Below are positions 19,109-36,683 of a stretch of DNA of 64,000 nucleotides, in pieces. Each line of letters starts with the position of its first letter. Within the stretch, counting starts at the first letter, position 1. The notes beneath the pieces were generated by a model, which was not told the DNA's origin, made no database searches, and saw only the letters and a program-made list of their open reading frames with translations. Position numbers and translations under genes: made by a program. The stretch is from an uncultured Verrucomicrobiae bacterium (lineage in GTDB: Bacteria > Verrucomicrobiota > Verrucomicrobiia > Palsa-1439), in NCBI GenBank assembly GCA_963812605.1, contig CAWEWF010000001.1, positions 544,001 through 608,000 of the forward strand, read 5' to 3'.

Positions 19109-19205
19109 AAACGAACCGGATTGGAAACCCTGTTATTTTCAATGCAACTATCAGAATGATAACCGGTTATGGCGACAGCCTCAAATTTTTCAATCCGGTT
19201 CGTTT
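19109..19205. repeat. MITE-like unit with a 15-bp perfect inverted repeat (AAACGAACCGGATTG)
   Basis: 19109-19123 is the reverse complement of 19191-19205; intergenic. Confidence 0.6.
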
Positions 19206-19271
19206 GGCGGCATTTTCGGCAGGTTCGGAATGACTTTTGAGGGTGACTGACTGTAAAGTGCGACCCGCATC

Positions 19272-19904
19272 ATGATGAAATCCAGGCCCTGGCTTCCGTA
19301 TGTCGTGCCGATGGCGATTTACTCGGCGTTCCTGCTGGTGCAGCCGTACGCGAATCTGTTGTGGATTTATCCGGCGAAGACCCTCGCGGTGGCGGCGGCG
19401 CTGATTTATTTTCGCAAGGAGTACGAGGAGTTGCGGCCGGGGTTTTCCCTGCTGGCGGTCATTGTCGGTCTCGTGGCGATTGCGATCTGGATCGCCATCG
19501 ATCCGTTTTATCCCAAGCATGAAAGTGGGGCGGCGTTCGACCCCACGACCATCTCCTCGCTGGCGCAACGGAATATGTTCCTCGTGTTTCGCGTCGTGGG
19601 CGCGGTGCTCGTGGTGCCGGTGATGGAGGAATTGTTCTGGCGCGCGTTCCTGATTCGCTGGTTGGTGAACGAAGACTTCAAGAGCGTGCCGGTCGGCACG
19701 TTCACCGGGCTTTCGTTCGCGGTGACGGTGGCGCTGTTCGGGGCGGAACACACGCAATGGCTGGCGGGGTTGATTTGCGGGGCGCTGTACAATTGGCTCT
19801 ACTACAAACGCAAGGATGTGTTCGCGTGCGTCATCGCCCACGCAGTCAGCAACGCGGCGCTGGCGGCATGGGTCTTGTCGCGCGGCGATTGGAAATTCTG
19901 GTGA
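19272..19904 (+). CDS. CAAX/CPBP intramembrane protease-related protein (exosortase-associated type)
   Basis: VPVMEELFWRAFLIR, LFGAEH, IAHAVSN. Confidence 0.88.
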   Translation: MMKSRPWLPYVVPMAIYSAFLLVQPYANLLWIYPAKTLAVAAALIYFRKEYEELRPGFSLLAVIVGLVAIAIWIAIDPFYPKHESGAAFDPTTISSLAQRNMFLVFRVVGAVLVVPVMEELFWRAFLIRWLVNEDFKSVPVGTFTGLSFAVTVALFGAEHTQWLAGLICGALYNWLYYKRKDVFACVIAHAVSNAALAAWVLSRGDWKFW

Positions 19905-31321: not shown

Positions 31322-31705
31322 ATGAGCGAGACCAACAAACAGGACATCTACCGGGTGCTAATCGTGGATGAGGATGCTGCGCTGCGTGAACTGCTCGCCG
31401 GCTTGCTACGCGCGCCGAACCGCAGCGTGGAAGTACGCGATAGCGCACGCGCCGCGTTGGAATTTTTGCGGCACAATCCCATCGATATTGCGTTTGTCGA
31501 TGCGGCGTTGACAGGCGCAACCGCGCAACATCTGGCGGACAAAATCAAGAAACTCTGCCCGCACGCCCATGTCGTCGTCTGTGCCGGACGTTTGTCCCAA
31601 CCGTGGGACAGCGCGGGCCGCACCCGCAAGGGCGAGCGCGAACTGCGGCAACCATTCAATTTTGGCGAGGCCCTTCAGCTCGCCGATTCGTGCAAGACCG
31701 AGTGA
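31322..31705 (+). CDS. receiver-domain protein (degenerate)
   Basis: VLIVDED, DIAFVD; QPF in place of KPF. Confidence 0.72.
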   Translation: MSETNKQDIYRVLIVDEDAALRELLAGLLRAPNRSVEVRDSARAALEFLRHNPIDIAFVDAALTGATAQHLADKIKKLCPHAHVVVCAGRLSQPWDSAGRTRKGERELRQPFNFGEALQLADSCKTE

Positions 31706-31845
31706 AAATGAACACGATCTCGATTAGGGCGCTGGCTCCAGGGTTGGCTGTGAAGCAGGCTGCGCTGGGTGCGCAGGAAAAACCGTTCATGGCGGACCAG
31801 CGCCTCTTTCTTTGGGACATTGCCGAAAGCCCACGAGGCTTCGGA

Positions 31846-31959
31846 CTGTCCGCTCGCGACGGGTTGAGAGTCAACTGTTCGAATCCCCCCAACGCCATCA
31901 AGGTCGGCGCCTCCTCCGACCGAAGAACAGCTTGATCTCTCAACCCGCGCGCGCGGCAG
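31846..31959 (-). ncRNA. structured RNA resembling the Acido-Lenti-1 motif
   Basis: Long stem GGGTTGAGAG.TCAA.CTGTTC / GAACAG.TTGA.CTCTCAACCC plus inner stem GGTCGG/CCGACC; the family name is recalled, not searched. Confidence 0.5.
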
Positions 31960-32232
31960 CTCTTCTGCCGCGCCGGCGAGTTAGCAGTTTGGAAAATGAA
32001 ATTTTGTAAATAGACAAATGAGCAGTCCTTCAAAAAATCGTCTCTGGGAAACCCTGACCCGTCCCATTCCTCTAAAATGGACGTGGAAGGACGGGGTGGC
32101 GCTCGCCATCCTGGCCTTGATCGTCCTGATCAAGAATGCCCTTTCCAAGTCGGGCACAAGCGGCCATCGCCTGCTTGCTTTTCCACCCGTGTACGTTATA
32201 TTCGCACTGCCATAACACGGCTATATTCTCAT

Positions 32233-32587
32233 GGGGGCGAAACGGATTCGACTTTGTGGGGTGAGCGTGAGCGGCATGCCGAGGTTGTCAGGAGGCCTCG
32301 TTAAAAACCTGGCAAAAACATAACTGCGAATCACGAACTCGCACTCGCGGCTTAATTGTCCGCGACGTTCCGCCTGCGACACCTGCTGGTGGGGTCGGAA
32401 CGACGATAGCAGGTTAGTCTATGGATGTCGTCTTCAGGTCCATGGATGAAACACTAACTGGAGGCTGGCGCGGCGGGTGGCCTGTCCATTGGCAGCACGC
32501 CGGGCGAGACCCAAAGATGGAATAAGCATGTAGTCACTTGCGTGCGCTTTGCAGAGGACGTGGGTTCAACTCCCACCGCCTCCACCA
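32233..32587 (+). ncRNA. ssrA: tmRNA, tag (A)ANHELALAA at 32326-32355
   Basis: 5' GGGGGCGAAACGGATTCGAC, tag ORF ending ALAA-stop, 3' T-arm GTGGGTTCAACTCCCAC and GCCTCCACCA. Confidence 0.97.
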
Positions 32588-34087
32588 CTTTGAACTTGGC
32601 GTGAAATCATCGACCGCGCTCGGCGCGGCAACGGTGGTTTCAGCCAAGAAATTCCAGGGTTTTCTGAAGGTAACAGTTAAGGTCTGCTCGCGTAAAAGGC
32701 GGTTCGAGCAGACCTTTTTAAGGAACCCTTTCATTTCTAACCAGTTTTGGTCAGTCAGCCATTCTTCGGCCTTGTTTGCCTCAAAAAGCCAGTTTTTGAG
32801 GGGTTCGAGCCGATGAGCATGGTTTGACTCCAAAGTGGTGATTTGACCCTCCAATTCGACCTTGCGGGGCAGGAGGGGGTTTTTGAGTTCCTTGAACTCC
32901 TCAATATCGAGTGACCCGTCGGCAAAGCCGTTGTTGATGCGGTCGATCTTGGTCTTGATCGCCGCCAACTCGGCTTTGAGTCGGTCGATCTGTATTTGCC
33001 TCCGTACCGTCTCCTCCTCTTCCCACGTTTCAACTTTGGCGAGAAACCGTTCCTTCCATTCGATGGGAAGGGCGACTAGCTGCGTGTTCCGTTTCACTTC
33101 ATCGGCGAACGTGTCTTTGCGAATGTACGAGCGGTCTTCGCAATGCACCTTCTTGTTCTTGTGGGTGCATCGGTAGTAGTCGAAGCGAAGGCCGCTCTTT
33201 TTGATATGCCGTTCGCCGGTGATACAATGGCCACAGGAACCGCAGGTAGCGAAATTCAGGAAGAGAAATCCTTTGTCGTCGCGATGCTTGCGAGGCTTCG
33301 CGACGGCAACAAGCGCTTCTTGAATCTGATCGAAGGTTTTCTTCGAAATCATGGGCTGGTGCACGCCGTGGTGCACTTCGCCCTTGTGCAGAAAAACGCC
33401 ATAGTAGAAGTGGCAGCGGAGCAGGTTGCCGACGGAAGAAAGTGGTAGTGGCTTGCCATTCTGTCGGCCTAGAATACCAAGCTTGGTTGACTCTTTCTGG
33501 ATGGCGGTGAGCGAATATTCGCCTGTGGCGAATAGCTCCAAAAGCCGCTTCACCTTGGGAAAAAGCTCTGGATGGGGTTCGATGGTGCGGAGGCGTGGTT
33601 CATTTACATAGCCAAGTGGTGCTCTGCCGGACCATACGCCGCGTCGAACCTTCTCGCGGATGCCCCTGCGGATATTTACGGAGAGATCGCGGACGTATTG
33701 GTTCGCCATGCCGAGTTCAACTGCTATCATGAGCACGTTGTCGGATGGCAGGTACGTTCTTTCAAAGGCGCGGATTTCCTGAATGACGCCTCGCTGGAGC
33801 AACCCGATGATCTTTCCCCCGTCATCGAAGTTGCGGGCGAGTCTATCGAGCTTCCATGAAAGAATGGCATTCGCCTCGCCGCGTTCGATGCGGGCTAGCA
33901 TGTCGTTGAAGATTGGTCGGCCAGGCTCCTTGGCGCTCCGACTTTCGGTAAATGTTTCGACGATCACCAAGCCGTCTTGCCGCGCGATCGAGTTCAATTC
34001 GGAAAGCTGGGCTTCGATGGAAAGAATTTGTCTGTCTTCATCCTCCGTCGATTTGCGCGCATATACGAAGTATTTCAGCATGGACAT
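32534..34087 (-). CDS. large serine recombinase (resolvase + recombinase + Zn ribbon + coiled coil)
   Basis: YARKST catalytic Ser, KLDRLARN, GRAPLGY, CGSCG...YYRC...C; the last 54 nt are antisense to tmRNA. Confidence 0.95.
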   Translation of the reverse strand: MSMLKYFVYARKSTEDEDRQILSIEAQLSELNSIARQDGLVIVETFTESRSAKEPGRPIFNDMLARIERGEANAILSWKLDRLARNFDDGGKIIGLLQRGVIQEIRAFERTYLPSDNVLMIAVELGMANQYVRDLSVNIRRGIREKVRRGVWSGRAPLGYVNEPRLRTIEPHPELFPKVKRLLELFATGEYSLTAIQKESTKLGILGRQNGKPLPLSSVGNLLRCHFYYGVFLHKGEVHHGVHQPMISKKTFDQIQEALVAVAKPRKHRDDKGFLFLNFATCGSCGHCITGERHIKKSGLRFDYYRCTHKNKKVHCEDRSYIRKDTFADEVKRNTQLVALPIEWKERFLAKVETWEEEETVRRQIQIDRLKAELAAIKTKIDRINNGFADGSLDIEEFKELKNPLLPRKVELEGQITTLESNHAHRLEPLKNWLFEANKAEEWLTDQNWLEMKGFLKKVCSNRLLREQTLTVTFRKPWNFLAETTVAAPSAVDDFTPSSKWWRRWELNPRPLQSARK

Positions 34088-34123
34088 AGTCTAGCAGATT
34101 TCATAAATGATTGCGATATAAAA

Positions 34124-34531
34124 ATGAAGCGTCAGAAACATTTTACAATACCGAAAGCACTGCTCAAGAAACTGCGGGGTAATTCCTCGTCGGAGCGCCT
34201 GCTGCATCGCCTGCATGCCGTCGCGCTCGTTGCTGGCGGGCTTTCGGCTAGTGAAGTCGGGCAAATCTACGGTGATTCCCCCCGTGCTGTGGCCTATTGG
34301 GTGACTCAATACAGGAAGAGCGGCTTTGAAGGACTACAGGAGGAGGATCGCCCTGGTCGTCCGGCGCAATTAAGCCCAACGCAGATGAAGAAGCTGCAAA
34401 CTTTTGTGGAACAATCTCGTGCGAGATCACGAACGGTGAATGCGAACATCCTCTCCAAGTATATCAAAGAAGAGTTCGGCATTTCTCTTAGCACCCCTCA
34501 GTGTTGGCGGATTCTTAATCGATTGAAATGA
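34124..34531 (+). CDS. stand-alone HTH protein resembling the IS630 transposase N-terminus (no DDE domain)
   Basis: RLHAVAL...AVAYWVTQY..GFEGL...RPGRPAQLS...EEFGISLS..CWRIL; divergent from the recombinase. Confidence 0.8.
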   Translation: MKRQKHFTIPKALLKKLRGNSSSERLLHRLHAVALVAGGLSASEVGQIYGDSPRAVAYWVTQYRKSGFEGLQEEDRPGRPAQLSPTQMKKLQTFVEQSRARSRTVNANILSKYIKEEFGISLSTPQCWRILNRLK

Positions 34532-34603
34532 GTGAGTGTTGTGGTTGTCGGGTGTTTCTTTAGGCTCGATGGTGCGTATGCGGCGCCAGCAGTGAAGCTG
34601 GTC

Positions 34604-34780
34604 CCGCCTTTTACGCGAGCAGACCTTAACTGTTACCTTCAGAAAACCCTGGAATTTCTTGGCTGAAACCACCGTTGCCGCGCCGAGCGCGGTCGATGAT
34701 TTCACGCCAAGTTCAAAGTGGTGGTGCCTTCTGGAGAAAGTTCGTACCTTTTTTAATGAAAATCCAGTCTGATTTGGGTA
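34604..34780 (-). repeat. internal inverted attP copy (177 bp)
   Basis: 34604-34724 is the exact reverse complement of 32582-32702 (121 bp); 34719-34780 is the exact reverse complement of 35386-35447 (62 bp); the two overlap on TGGTGG. Confidence 0.93.
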
Positions 34781-35447
34781 AGGGAGCAATGGCTCCGTGA
34801 AGAGATCCGCGCGAACCGAATCATGATTCTTGAACTGATGAAATGGGGGGTAGTAGTTCTGTCCGGCGTTACGTCATCGCTATATTTTGTTCGGCGTAAC
34901 GTGGCGAAGCACTTGGCGGCACTCGGTGCACACCTTCGCCGTCGATGGGGTAAGAGGGGTATCGACGTAGCACAAGGGGGGTGTAGCCGAAGCGTATGTA
35001 ACCCGAGCCGATCCATCTGCGTAGCTGCGAAACGGGAGGGGAAAAGGTGTCGAGAGGAAACCTGGGGAGGCTTCCTCCCTGTTTTCCTGCGAACCCGTTT
35101 CCGGGTTCTTGTCTCCCGCGTAAGCGGGCTGTCCCACCCGTGTTCGACCCGTTAAAGGACATTGTCCTTTAACACGTTCCCGTGCGTGGGTGAACCCGTT
35201 GTGTCGCCTCTGCGACGAGCGCGAGCACGGCCTGCCCTGAGGCCGCGCGCAGCCCGATTCCGCGTGAGCGGAAAACCTATGGAAGTAGGGGATGTCAAAC
35301 GAGGGGTGAACCACGACAAAACCGTTGTAAACATTGACTCATCTGGGATCAGCACCCCTCCCCACAGTGGGGAAGGGTGTGGGGATACCCAAATCAGACT
35401 GGATTTTCATTAAAAAAGGTACGAACTTTCTCCAGAAGGCACCACCA

Positions 35448-35497
35448 TTCGACGCGCCCTTCGCTCAAGCGAAGGGCTTGCTCATGGCAGGCCATTC
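35448..35497 (+). repeat. hairpin/REP-like sequence, presumed original downstream flank of tmRNA
   Basis: TTCGAC..GCCCTTCGC-TCAA-GCGAAGGGC..GCTCATGGCAGGCC immediately after attR. Confidence 0.55.
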
Positions 35498-35545
35498 CAC
35501 TAAATTCGACACAGACTCTTTGCACGCCAGCGCGGCGAATGGGCG

Positions 35546-35833
35546 ATGAACTCCTACACCTATATTCTTCTCTGTGCCGATGATTCTCTGTATGTTGGGC
35601 ACACGCACGATTTGAGTTTGCGGGTCGATGCACACGACACAGGTCGCGGCGCTCTTCACACCGCCAAACATGGAGTTGCTCGACTGGTCTACTCAGAAGA
35701 ACATGCCACCGAAGCGCTAGCCGTGGCACGCGAACTTCAGATCAAGAAATGGAGTCGTGCGAAGAAGATGGCGCTCATCAATGGGGATTTTGAGCGACTA
35801 CGCGAACTCAGCCGGAGCCGAGACAAATTCTAA
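35546..35833 (+). CDS. GIY-YIG nuclease family protein (YhbQ-like)
   Basis: YTYILLC..SLYVGHT..R...H, ARELQIKKWSRAKK. Confidence 0.92.
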   Translation: MNSYTYILLCADDSLYVGHTHDLSLRVDAHDTGRGALHTAKHGVARLVYSEEHATEALAVARELQIKKWSRAKKMALINGDFERLRELSRSRDKF

Positions 35834-35876
35834 AGCGTTGCGAAAGGCTGCTCAAAGGCGGTGGAACATCCTGCGG

Positions 35877-36683
35877 ATGACCGTCATGTTCGAGGGAAAG
35901 ACCCGGCGGCGTAATCGGCTTCAGGCACAAACCTTCCCCGCATTGTGGGGGGCCATCCTGCAGCAAAACGTCTCGTACTATCAGCGGCTCACCCCGTCCG
36001 AGCGCAAGGAATTGCACGGTGACATTCAGGTGTTCATCGCGGAGAAAAACTTCGAAGGGTGCGGCGGCCTGGAAATTACCGAGGAGATCAAAGTCACTAT
36101 TGCCGCTTACGCCTGCATCCTGTTGCTGAACCGCCGGCACGATTTTTATCCGCGTCTGCGATCCATCCTCGTCTATCCTGATGCCTATCCCGCGGCGGTG
36201 GTGCGAATCGCGCCGGGAAACATCGCAATCGAAGGCCACGAGATGCGCGCCGGGGAATCCTGGCGGACTGGGGCGGTGGTCCTATCGTGGAACCATGTCC
36301 TGCGTCGCCCGGCGGCGGTTCCGGAGGGCCGAAATGTGGCGCTCCATGAGTTCGCGCATCAGCTCGACCACGAGAATGGCTTTACCAACGGCGCCCCGGT
36401 CTTGCCGACAACTTCCCAATATGCCACGTGGGCCCGCGTTCTCGGGAGTGAGTTCGCTACCTTGTCCAAACAAACCGCGGCTGAACAGCCGACGCTCATC
36501 GATAAGTATGGCGCAACCGAACCGGCCGAGTTCTTCGCTGTCGTCACGGAATATTTCTTTGAAAAATCGGCCCAGCTCCAACAGCGGCATCCCGAACTTT
36601 ACGAGGAGTTAAGGCGTTTCTACCGCCAGGACCCGGTCAGCACGGATCGCATGGAATCACCAACGCGCCAGACCCCAAAATAA
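35877..36683 (+). CDS. M90 family zinc peptidase (MtfA-like)
   Basis: GESW..GAVVLSW, HEFAHQLD, YGATEPAEFFAV.TE.FFE. Confidence 0.92.
   Translation: MTVMFEGKTRRRNRLQAQTFPALWGAILQQNVSYYQRLTPSERKELHGDIQVFIAEKNFEGCGGLEITEEIKVTIAAYACILLLNRRHDFYPRLRSILVYPDAYPAAVVRIAPGNIAIEGHEMRAGESWRTGAVVLSWNHVLRRPAAVPEGRNVALHEFAHQLDHENGFTNGAPVLPTTSQYATWARVLGSEFATLSKQTAAEQPTLIDKYGATEPAEFFAVVTEYFFEKSAQLQQRHPELYEELRRFYRQDPVSTDRMESPTRQTPK

Follow-up and report, generated by a model that had tools for sequence, protein, structure and literature searches.

A large serine recombinase element with a complete inverted internal copy of its attP at a tmRNA gene of an uncultured Verrucomicrobiae bacterium

Nested inverted repeats at a tmRNA gene

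The window analysed here is a stretch of 64,000 nucleotides from an uncultured Verrucomicrobiae bacterium (assembly GCA_963812605.1, contig CAWEWF010000001.1, positions 544,001 to 608,000; coordinates below count from the first nucleotide of this stretch). It contains an element at the 3' end of a transfer-messenger RNA (tmRNA) gene that encodes a large serine recombinase (LSR) and a helix-turn-helix (HTH) protein and that carries, in inverted orientation, a complete internal copy of its own attachment site (attP). The layout is tmRNA-CCACCA-armA(115)-[LSR, HTH]-armA'-TGGTGG-armB'(56)-605 bp-armB-CCACCA-host, and the element is present as one copy in its genome (4.17 Mb, 15 contigs). This layout had been given in a preliminary description made from the sequence letters, and every coordinate in it was reproduced by a repeat search, ARAGORN, Rfam and Pfam; three points had been missed, namely that arm A is also the 3' coding end of the LSR gene, that the 605 bp are what a deletion left of a larger cargo, and that the layout is family-wide.

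The tmRNA gene (32233–32587, plus strand) was called by ARAGORN and Rfam (RF00023; 195 bits against a gathering score of 47), possesses both a tRNA-like domain and a tag reading frame (tag ANHELALAA), and has CCACCA as its 3' end; an Rfam scan of 31500–36500 at E ≤ 1 returned this tmRNA and sub-threshold noise only, with no match in the 605 bp, referred to as segment Y (34781–35385, plus strand). The last ~25 nt of the gene (T-loop, 3' strand of the acceptor and CCA) are the left half of attB and attL. The attL core CCACCA (32582–32587, plus strand) is the sole identity between attB and attP, with the crossover inside it, as judged from the sequence, relatives and an empty site, and is followed by the 115-bp arm A at attL, or P' arm (32588–32702, plus strand), whose minus strand codes the last ~40 conserved LSR residues up to the residues WW. 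The LSR open reading frame (ORF; 32534–34087, minus strand, 517 aa) and the HTH ORF (34124–34531, plus strand, 135 aa, Pfam) come next. They are followed by the internal inverted arm A (34604–34718, minus strand), 100% identical to 32588–32702, by the internal core TGGTGG (34719–34724; CCACCA on the minus strand), and by an internal inverted arm B (34725–34780, minus strand) that is cut to 56 bp and retains the GGATTTTC..AAAA and GTACGAA motifs. Segment Y, the cargo remnant, is bounded on its far side by arm B at attR, or P arm (35386–35441, plus strand; assigned from the repeat pair and the motif offset), and the attR core CCACCA (35442–35447, plus strand; assigned from the sequence and the empty site).

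Two pairs of inverted repeats (IR) organise this arrangement. The exact part of IR-A comprises 121 nt (32582–32702 and 34604–34724), which can be extended to 128 nt at 98% identity (32582–32709 and 34597–34724), and IR-B comprises 62 nt at 100% identity (34719–34780 and 35386–35447) with 605 nt in between; the two pairs have the hexamer TGGTGG (34719–34724) in common. Such lengths at 100% identity (121 and 62 nt) far exceed what chance would give, the remaining repeats that the search found in the same 5 kb being only 14–24 nt long and 71–93% identical. Read on the minus strand, 34604–34780 is armB-CCACCA-armA, which is the complete junction that had been claimed for it.

Recombinase, attachment sites and tRNA targets

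Relatives of the element were sampled as 21 loci from species-representative genomes and 80 metagenome loci (LSR 37–81% identical). The window protein matches Pfam profiles PF00239 (Resolvase), PF07508 (Recombinase) and PF13408 (Zn_ribbon_recom), each above its cut-off, and so has the catalytic-serine resolvase domain, recombinase domain and zinc ribbon of an LSR; R9, S11 and four cysteines are invariant in a 12-member alignment. Among integrase structures, phmmer gave weak yet significant matches to the SPbeta integrase (3e-10) and the A118 integrase (6e-7), and the NCBIfam matches to XisF and Ccr were far under their cut-offs. These comparisons identify the predicted protein as a distant LSR. 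Its ORF continues across arm A, the core TGGTGG codes the residues WW, and the stop codon lies 15 codons into the tmRNA antisense; read-through of arm A to a conserved WW was found in all 15 loci examined, the arm peptide having the form ...QTLTVSFKKPW...WW. The attP therefore sits within the 3' end of the integrase gene. A sigma-70-like promoter aimed at the LSR start (34140–34167, minus strand) is suggested by a consensus match.

The HTH ORF matches the Pfam families HTH_32, HTH_28 and HTH_23 and resembles the N-terminal DNA-binding part of IS630 transposases, which makes its product a candidate regulator or directionality factor. The minimal relatives surveyed (a clade at 48–51% identity) are without this gene, and there the left arm is just ~130–270 nt upstream of the LSR start.

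Integration at the 3' end of the tmRNA, as the preliminary description had proposed, is supported by an empty site. In genome G004 the tmRNA ends in CCACCA and is followed by TTTTCAGGGCTGCGAACC; in genome G012 arm A follows the tmRNA, and TTTTCAGGGCTGCGAACC is found after armB-CCACCA, so that the G004 empty site equals the attR flank of G012 and the insertion is precise around the short core CCACCA. Other targets were identified beside the LSR by ARAGORN and comprise 13 tRNA identities in addition to tmRNA: Ala (26 loci), tmRNA (13), Pro (6), Val and Asn (5 each), Lys, Ile, Ser and Glu (2 each), and His, Trp, Asp, Arg and Gln (1 each). The core tracks the last bases of each tRNA (CCACCA, CCGCCA, CGGAGCCA or CGACCA), and in one metagenome locus (L056) integration took place at a mere ~25-nt tmRNA 3' fragment. 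The core is the final 6–8 nt of the tRNA or tmRNA, insertion occurring directly after the encoded CCA end; attB, judged from these sequences, consists of a tRNA-like 3' end plus any downstream sequence, and attP of armB-core-armA.

The offset between half-sites suggests how such a range of targets may be recognised. Arm B is recognisably conserved family-wide (GGATTTTC.TCAAAA...GTTCGRA...ACA, directly followed by the core), and its GTTCRA-like (GTNC) motif lies exactly 5 bp farther from the core than that of the tRNA T-loop in 27 of 32 elements, the motif-offset comparison having given no pattern match on one side in the remaining five. In the window, GTACGA of arm B starts 23 nt from the core, compared with 18 nt for GTTCAA of the tmRNA T-loop. 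Motifs for the second DNA-binding domain of LSRs are 5 bp nearer the centre in attB than in attP, or 4 bp in SPbeta, according to the available portion of PMC11722253. The analysis covers one side of each site, and the ~5-bp offset between attP and attB was found in the left halves; between arms A and B no convincing dyad symmetry was detected by eye. Because the +5 offset matches this rule for LSR sites, we infer that these LSRs may read the universal tRNA T-loop and that arm B would be its P-type mimic.

The internal attP and the cargo in relatives

The family is large, with at least 386 matches confirmed by tblastn in one metagenome scan. The preliminary description had left open whether the internal inverted site is conserved in close homologues; it is, and well beyond them. 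Seventy loci with at least 300 nt before and at least 130 nt after the LSR match were testable, and in 63 of these, at LSR identities down to ~37%, an inverted repeat of 65–242 bp brackets the LSR gene; the pairs are 100% identical in 32 cases, at least 97% identical in 46 and less than 90% identical in 7, and their lengths cluster at 121, 124–125, 147–148 and 159–162 bp. No bracketing pair was found in the other seven testable loci (L032, L036, L037, L039, L059, L061 and L120). Among the 21 genome loci, 14 have an inverted pair around the LSR, 13 of these pairs being 100% identical; they are often exactly 121 bp long with the same homologous end position, while the arms are only 74–98% identical between genomes. 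Arms are thus usually identical within a genome and divergent between genomes. The mismatches between arms, counted per quartile from the core to the inner end in the 27 imperfect pairs (32, 11, 41 and 40), are silent on how arms are homogenised because a few loci dominate them.

IR-B recurs in the same way. It is 276 and 280 bp long (99.3% identical) in G012 and G003, around 21,760 and 4,050 bp of cargo respectively, and it encloses ~8.1 kb in G041; in a 5.9-Mb record titled 'chromosome: 1', IR-A (113 bp) and IR-B (266 bp) are both 100% identical and the cargo is ~8.1 kb. The internal B arm of relatives is 265–280 bp long, compared with 56 bp in the window, and has been truncated independently twice, to 56 bp in the window and to ~45 bp in L027. 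Of 31 metagenome loci, 13 carry a second, inverted B arm extending to the core (91–388 bp, cargo 1.2–8 kb), and several more have part of such an arm where the contig ends. An Omnitrophota element whose LSR is 46% identical has the order tRNA-Ala, core and arm, with the inverted arm 5.9 kb away and then a B arm homologous to that of the window. One locus, G003:C24, is a decayed remnant. The standard integrated layout, as read from these sequences, has attL, the recombinase module, a complete inverted attP, the cargo and attR in this order, which results in two nested pairs of inverted repeats with the internal core in common.

Other origins for such a layout were considered and rejected. Two independent transposons with terminal repeats, lying side by side, are contradicted by the unrelated termini and by an armB-core-armA unit that follows the half-site rule of LSRs; a circle that integrated through a palindromic attP does not fit an internal core that is inverted rather than direct, and a tandem dimer would yield a direct rather than an inverted attP. 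In G042 the tRNA and the B-core-host junction are 9 kb apart, with housekeeping genes in between; a site-specific rearrangement was set aside there in favour of a canonical element followed by inversion between two 174-bp repeats.

Several loci show irregularities of their own. In L030 (2771–6476), with tandem LSR genes, the 3' arm of the first meets the inverted inner arm of the second exactly at the arm-A palindrome, with the core absent, which suggests a rearrangement at the arm-A hairpin described below. In L015 (G015:C11), an empty tmRNA site is followed by CTTTGAACATTGC, which equals the first 13 nt of an L024/L027-type arm A save for the first one or two bases and may be the scar of a lost element. 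A second 27-nt tRNA-Ala 3' end with the same downstream bases (a direct repeat, 96%) lies ~400 bp past attR in L042 (G003:C34) and suggests an earlier or tandem integration at that tRNA, and in L077 (380–5286) an array of nine tRNAs occurs a few kilobases beyond the attR-side arm.

The recurrence of the layout bears on two explanations that would deny it any meaning. A mis-assembly of mixed integrated and excised forms, or a chimera, was named as an alternative in the preliminary description together with a one-off rearrangement; the contigs of many relatives do stop exactly at a repeat arm, which indicates that assemblers struggle there. The junctions of the LSR/HTH segment with armA' and of armB' with segment Y, however, cannot arise from mixing attL, attR, attP and attB; the layout is repeated in dozens of independent assemblies, including the 'chromosome: 1' record, and the bracketing repeat in 63 of 70 loci speaks equally against a one-off event. 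Logan contigs of four sequencing runs of related strains (word share ≤0.24) were also compared, the parts that they leave uncovered being no evidence either way, and in run X1, possibly the window's own source, a 170-nt contig covers 34607–34776 with no differences. An assembly artefact is therefore very improbable.

A single ancient inverted duplication of attP, homogenised by RecA-dependent gene conversion and functionless, is a second such explanation and is also improbable, if not to the same degree. It would account for an inner boundary sequence that is common to many relatives, for arm lengths that drift by clade (121–125, 147–148 and 159–162 bp) as expected of expanding or contracting repeat boundaries, and for the loss or truncation of the internal copy in some members. 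Yet the copy is retained in 63 of the 70 testable loci, in several phyla and down to ~37% LSR identity, and the two independent deletions leave the 45–56 bp adjacent to the core. In bacteria, long inverted repeats with perfect arms are as a rule unstable, which counts against their passive persistence.

The short segment Y of the window is atypical, since many relatives carry 1–22 kb within IR-B. Positions 34931–35449 match the right end of the cargo and the attR arm of G012 (93%) and G003 (77%), and 35179–35447 also match, inverted, the sequence adjoining the internal site in both. Segment Y may accordingly be divided into 34781–34930, which is without an identified relative, 34931–35178, related to the right end of the cargo, and 35179–35385, related to the inner part of the full-length IR-B arm in relatives. 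The comparison indicates that a deletion in the window copy took nearly all of the cargo together with the greater part of the internal B arm and left 605 bp. A 110-aa ORF in segment Y (34823–35155) has no Pfam or NCBIfam match and is probably not a gene because it overlaps the deletion junction near 34930.

The 21.8-kb cargo of G012 encodes a Replic_Relax (relaxase-like) protein, two coupling-protein-like ATPases, a DnaG-type primase, a DNA methylase, an SRAP protein and a CsgG/FlgO-like protein, and looks like a mobilisable island. G041 carries insertion sequence (IS) transposases and a helicase fragment. Smaller elements encode methylases, an MjaI-type endonuclease, a type III-like helicase/endonuclease and a radical-SAM protein, and a 65–72-aa ORF adjoins the internal site in them (with a Cro/C1-type HTH domain in both of the two tested with Pfam). 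Related elements have the arms and the few hundred base pairs next to them in common and differ in mid-cargo.

Further features were noted in and around the cargo. A CsgG/FlgO-like protein of 342 aa lies beside the internal attP in both G012 (L041 9509–10537) and G042 (L052 6547–7575), the DNA being 75% identical, and is thus encoded by a conserved cargo gene. In the window, a perfect palindrome with 11-bp arms, GTTAAAGGACA-T-TGTCCTTTAAC (35151–35173, either strand), can be read from the sequence beside the inner boundary of the full-length IR-B arm and is flanked by ACCCGT-like repeats (35130–35200), with a similar arrangement in G042 (L052 ~19170–19300); the repeats and palindrome look like iterons or an origin of transfer. 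A motif of ~80 nt in segment Y (~35009–35088), ending in a terminator-like hairpin at 35063–35081, recurs at 75–90% identity at many loci of genomes of the same genus and once more in this genome, one copy being located at G000:C3:73651–73729 (L006 1501–1579); it has no Rfam match and could be a dispersed small RNA or regulatory element. Beyond attR, 35448–35863 (plus strand) holds a hairpin (35456–35477) and a GIY-YIG ORF (35546–35833, 95 aa). These 416 bp, absent from G012 and G004, where sequence on the side of an M90 peptidase gene begins ~30–37 bp after CCACCA, may be a separate small insertion.

Role of the internal attP and comparison with known systems

The preliminary description had likened the layout to that of the yeast 2-micron plasmid and had proposed that both unique segments could be flipped and that excision would release a ~2.9-kb circle. 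The structural part of the latter proposal stands, as two inverted sites do divide an excised circle; the size is peculiar to this cargo-deleted copy. Orientation tells against regular flipping. Of 65 loci with sufficient downstream sequence, 60 have a tRNA or tmRNA gene on the opposite strand within 400 nt after the LSR gene, the 3' end of which thus faces it; the other five are L023 (a tmRNA 3' end that is visible although uncalled), L031 and L056 (3' fragments), L081 and L127. No tRNA follows the LSR in L127 and L120. A tRNA just upstream of the LSR start was found in one of 80 loci, L115, where tRNA-Ala is directly upstream of an arm, a spacer and the LSR start; these three parts are 97% identical to those of the canonical L095, and the element occupies a different host locus. 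In L081 the 3' arm of the LSR is followed by the core and the B' arm, as would be expected of a flipped or excised form; the cargo orientation fits an in-place flip, although not decisively. Nine of nine pairs of relatives without opposite-strand matches have their unique cargo in one orientation; the 13 remaining pairs listed do show opposite-strand matches, which seem to be those of the IR-B arms. In sequencing run X4, a 622-nt contig of a related strain joins 34951–35441 to 32582–32702 (cargo-armB-core-armA), which fits an excised circle and a flipped cargo equally.

Alternative isomers (L115, L081 and the X4 contig) exist, therefore, and are rare in consensus assemblies. Frequent inversion of both segments by the LSR, possibly for copy-number amplification of the excised circle, could draw on these alternative junctions, on the two inverted identical sites that split such a circle into two unique segments, and on the primase and Replic_Relax protein of the G012 cargo. 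Inverted crossover sites do flank each segment, but both orientations are not common: a free, 2-micron-like equilibrium is not supported, given the LSR orientation in 60 of 65 loci, the single case in 80 with the tRNA on the other side, and the uniform cargo. Moreover, in the cargos of five small elements Pfam detected restriction-modification, HTH and radical-SAM genes and recognised no replication domains, and LSRs normally do not recombine two attP-type sites (PMC11722253, in the portion available). Such flipping is thus a poor candidate.

One orientation may be selected through transcription. Arm A contains the hairpin CCGCGC-TCG-GCGCGG with a 6-bp stem (32614–32628, plus strand), which covaries in relatives: 91.7% of cells are paired in 12 relatives (17–56% in slid controls), and 9 cells show double changes, compared with 3.2 in shuffles, none of 500 of which reached as high a value. 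The peptide coded there varies among relatives, and on the tRNA-sense strand three cells are G-U, a hint that the hairpin forms as RNA within the tmRNA/tRNA transcript, for which it is a possible terminator. A second hairpin, with a 12-bp stem and a T-run that is conserved in relatives (32679–32719, plus strand, read from the sequence), is likely a terminator for tmRNA read-through; its loop exceeds the limit of 8 in the consensus scan, from the output of which it is absent, and because the exact repeat ends at 32702, within this loop, the hairpin is complete only beside the LSR gene. The element may in this way supply terminators to the displaced tRNA or tmRNA and shield the convergent LSR gene, which would explain selection for one orientation.

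The same observations could be accommodated by an internal attP that does not recombine but acts as an operator and insulator, with the LSR repressing its own gene and divergent cargo genes and the arm hairpins blocking transcription into the module. Resolvase binds res in Tn3 and represses its own gene in a comparable way. In the minimal relatives the inverted arm, ~130–270 nt upstream of the LSR start, separates the LSR gene from a divergent small HTH gene (Pfam, two loci); the orientation is almost invariant; the arm-A hairpin covaries, and a hairpin with a T-run stands at the inner end of the arm. On the other hand, in the window's clade an HTH gene of 408 bp stands between the site and the LSR start, ~50 bp would suffice where a perfect repeat of 120–400 bp is found, and the rare opposite isomers can be explained only if the copies recombine to some extent or the second site is used. 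We regard this explanation as unlikely, albeit one to be taken seriously.

The reading that we favour, and hold to be probable with appreciable doubt, is that the window element is a cargo-depleted member of a large family of LSR-driven integrative elements that keep an inverted internal attP as a working site. The LSR would integrate armB-core-armA into the tRNA-like 3' end, and after integration another intact attP would remain, placed between the recombinase module and the cargo. This internal attP may be a real LSR binding and recombination site under selection, as is argued by its retention across phyla at 37–46% LSR identity, by the identity of its arms and by the two truncations that spare 45–56 bp; arm identity would probably be maintained by gene conversion between the repeats. 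The internal site might be used occasionally, as an alternative integration site or inversion partner, which would give rise to the rare opposite isomers. A rarely used second recombination site is the role that we prefer, as it accounts for L115, L081 and the X4 contig. One isomer would dominate, probably because only that isomer places terminator hairpins after the tRNA and keeps the LSR gene convergent with, and shielded from, tRNA/tmRNA transcription.

A stronger form, which makes the doubled, inverted attP indispensable to the working of a new type of LSR element, is doubtful. The LSR could invert the recombinase module between attL and the internal attP as a ratchet, the gene being on, with flipping and excision, when downstream of the tRNA/tmRNA promoter, and off and stable when convergent and terminated; alternatively, a repeat of 180–400 bp could allow a single-stranded transfer form to fold back into a ready duplex attP. 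If either were true, these elements would provide an LSR system with relaxed site pairing and T-loop reading that could be retargeted by changing the 6–8-bp core.

Several observations weigh against a working internal site of the kind that we favour. Action of the LSR upon it is deduced from sequence, and the rule that an attP recombines only with an attB (PMC11722253, as far as the available portion goes) would make an inversion by attL x attP or attR x attP unorthodox. Given the almost invariant orientation, recombination at the internal site may never take place. In 12 of the 31 metagenome loci, some with little flank, the search gave no inverted B copy; L021, L025 and L030 have a perfect inner-arm repeat without the core-proximal part; no internal arm was found within 5.8 kb in G005:C17 and no second B copy in the G043 assembly. 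L021, L025, L030, G005:C17 and G043 indicate that an element can at least persist without the internal attP. Where assemblies come from short reads, perfect identity of the arms may partly be an assembler effect (bubble popping). In the right halves (arm A and the host flank) no convincing T-loop-like motif was detected by eye, and no directionality factor was recognised in the element, the HTH ORF being only a candidate.

LSRs are valued as tools for genome insertion, and strict attP x attB pairing is their central rule. Here a natural family keeps an intact attP in the integrated element, has its attP in the integrase gene and apparently uses the universal tRNA T-loop for recognition; an active internal site would represent a new mode of integrase regulation or an exception to the pairing rule, and an inactive one would still leave a clean natural case of T-loop mimicry in attP. 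The family also supplies small defence and restriction-modification islands from Verrucomicrobiota, Omnitrophota and bacteria of candidate phyla. The preliminary description knew of no LSR element with this architecture, and full-text literature searches likewise found no natural LSR element with an internal inverted attP, with attP inside the integrase gene or with T-loop recognition; in the portions of text returned, matches to 'inverted attP' were to synthetic cassette-exchange systems only. The layout belongs to a large, widespread LSR family, apparently without a published description.

Among known systems, the LSRs of phages and integrative and conjugative elements (phiC31, Bxb1, A118/LI and SPbeta SprA) have the same domain set, a short core common to attP and attB, and the 5-bp offset. 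Unlike them, the present family targets the CCA 3' end of many tRNA and tmRNA genes, probably by way of the T-loop, has its attP within the integrase ORF together with a second, complete inverted attP, and lacks a recognisable directionality factor. The yeast 2-micron plasmid has the tyrosine recombinase FLP, FRT sites in inverted repeats and equimolar isomers. The resemblance to it consists of a circle split by two inverted recombinase sites with the recombinase gene in one segment, whereas here the enzyme is a serine recombinase, one isomer is strongly dominant, and the five small-element cargos are without recognised replication domains.

Islander-type islands with tyrosine integrases likewise insert at the 3' part of tRNA and tmRNA genes (abstract of PMC4383910), and partial tRNA/tmRNA 3' copies are a further point of resemblance; such islands split the gene and restore it through tens of identical bases, whereas the present elements insert after the CCA by means of 6–8 bp and a serine recombinase. 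Tycheposons of Prochlorococcus, compared by description only, are also cargo-carrying elements at tRNA/tmRNA genes, of which a minority bear an LSR at tRNA genes, and a dual inverted attP is not mentioned in the portion of the preprint available. Two inverted LSR attP sites flanking a cassette are found, in the excerpts available, in the landing pads of synthetic cassette exchange (MiMIC/RMCE); these are engineered and need a donor with two inverted attB sites, whereas the arrangement described here is natural and is flanked by attL and attR.

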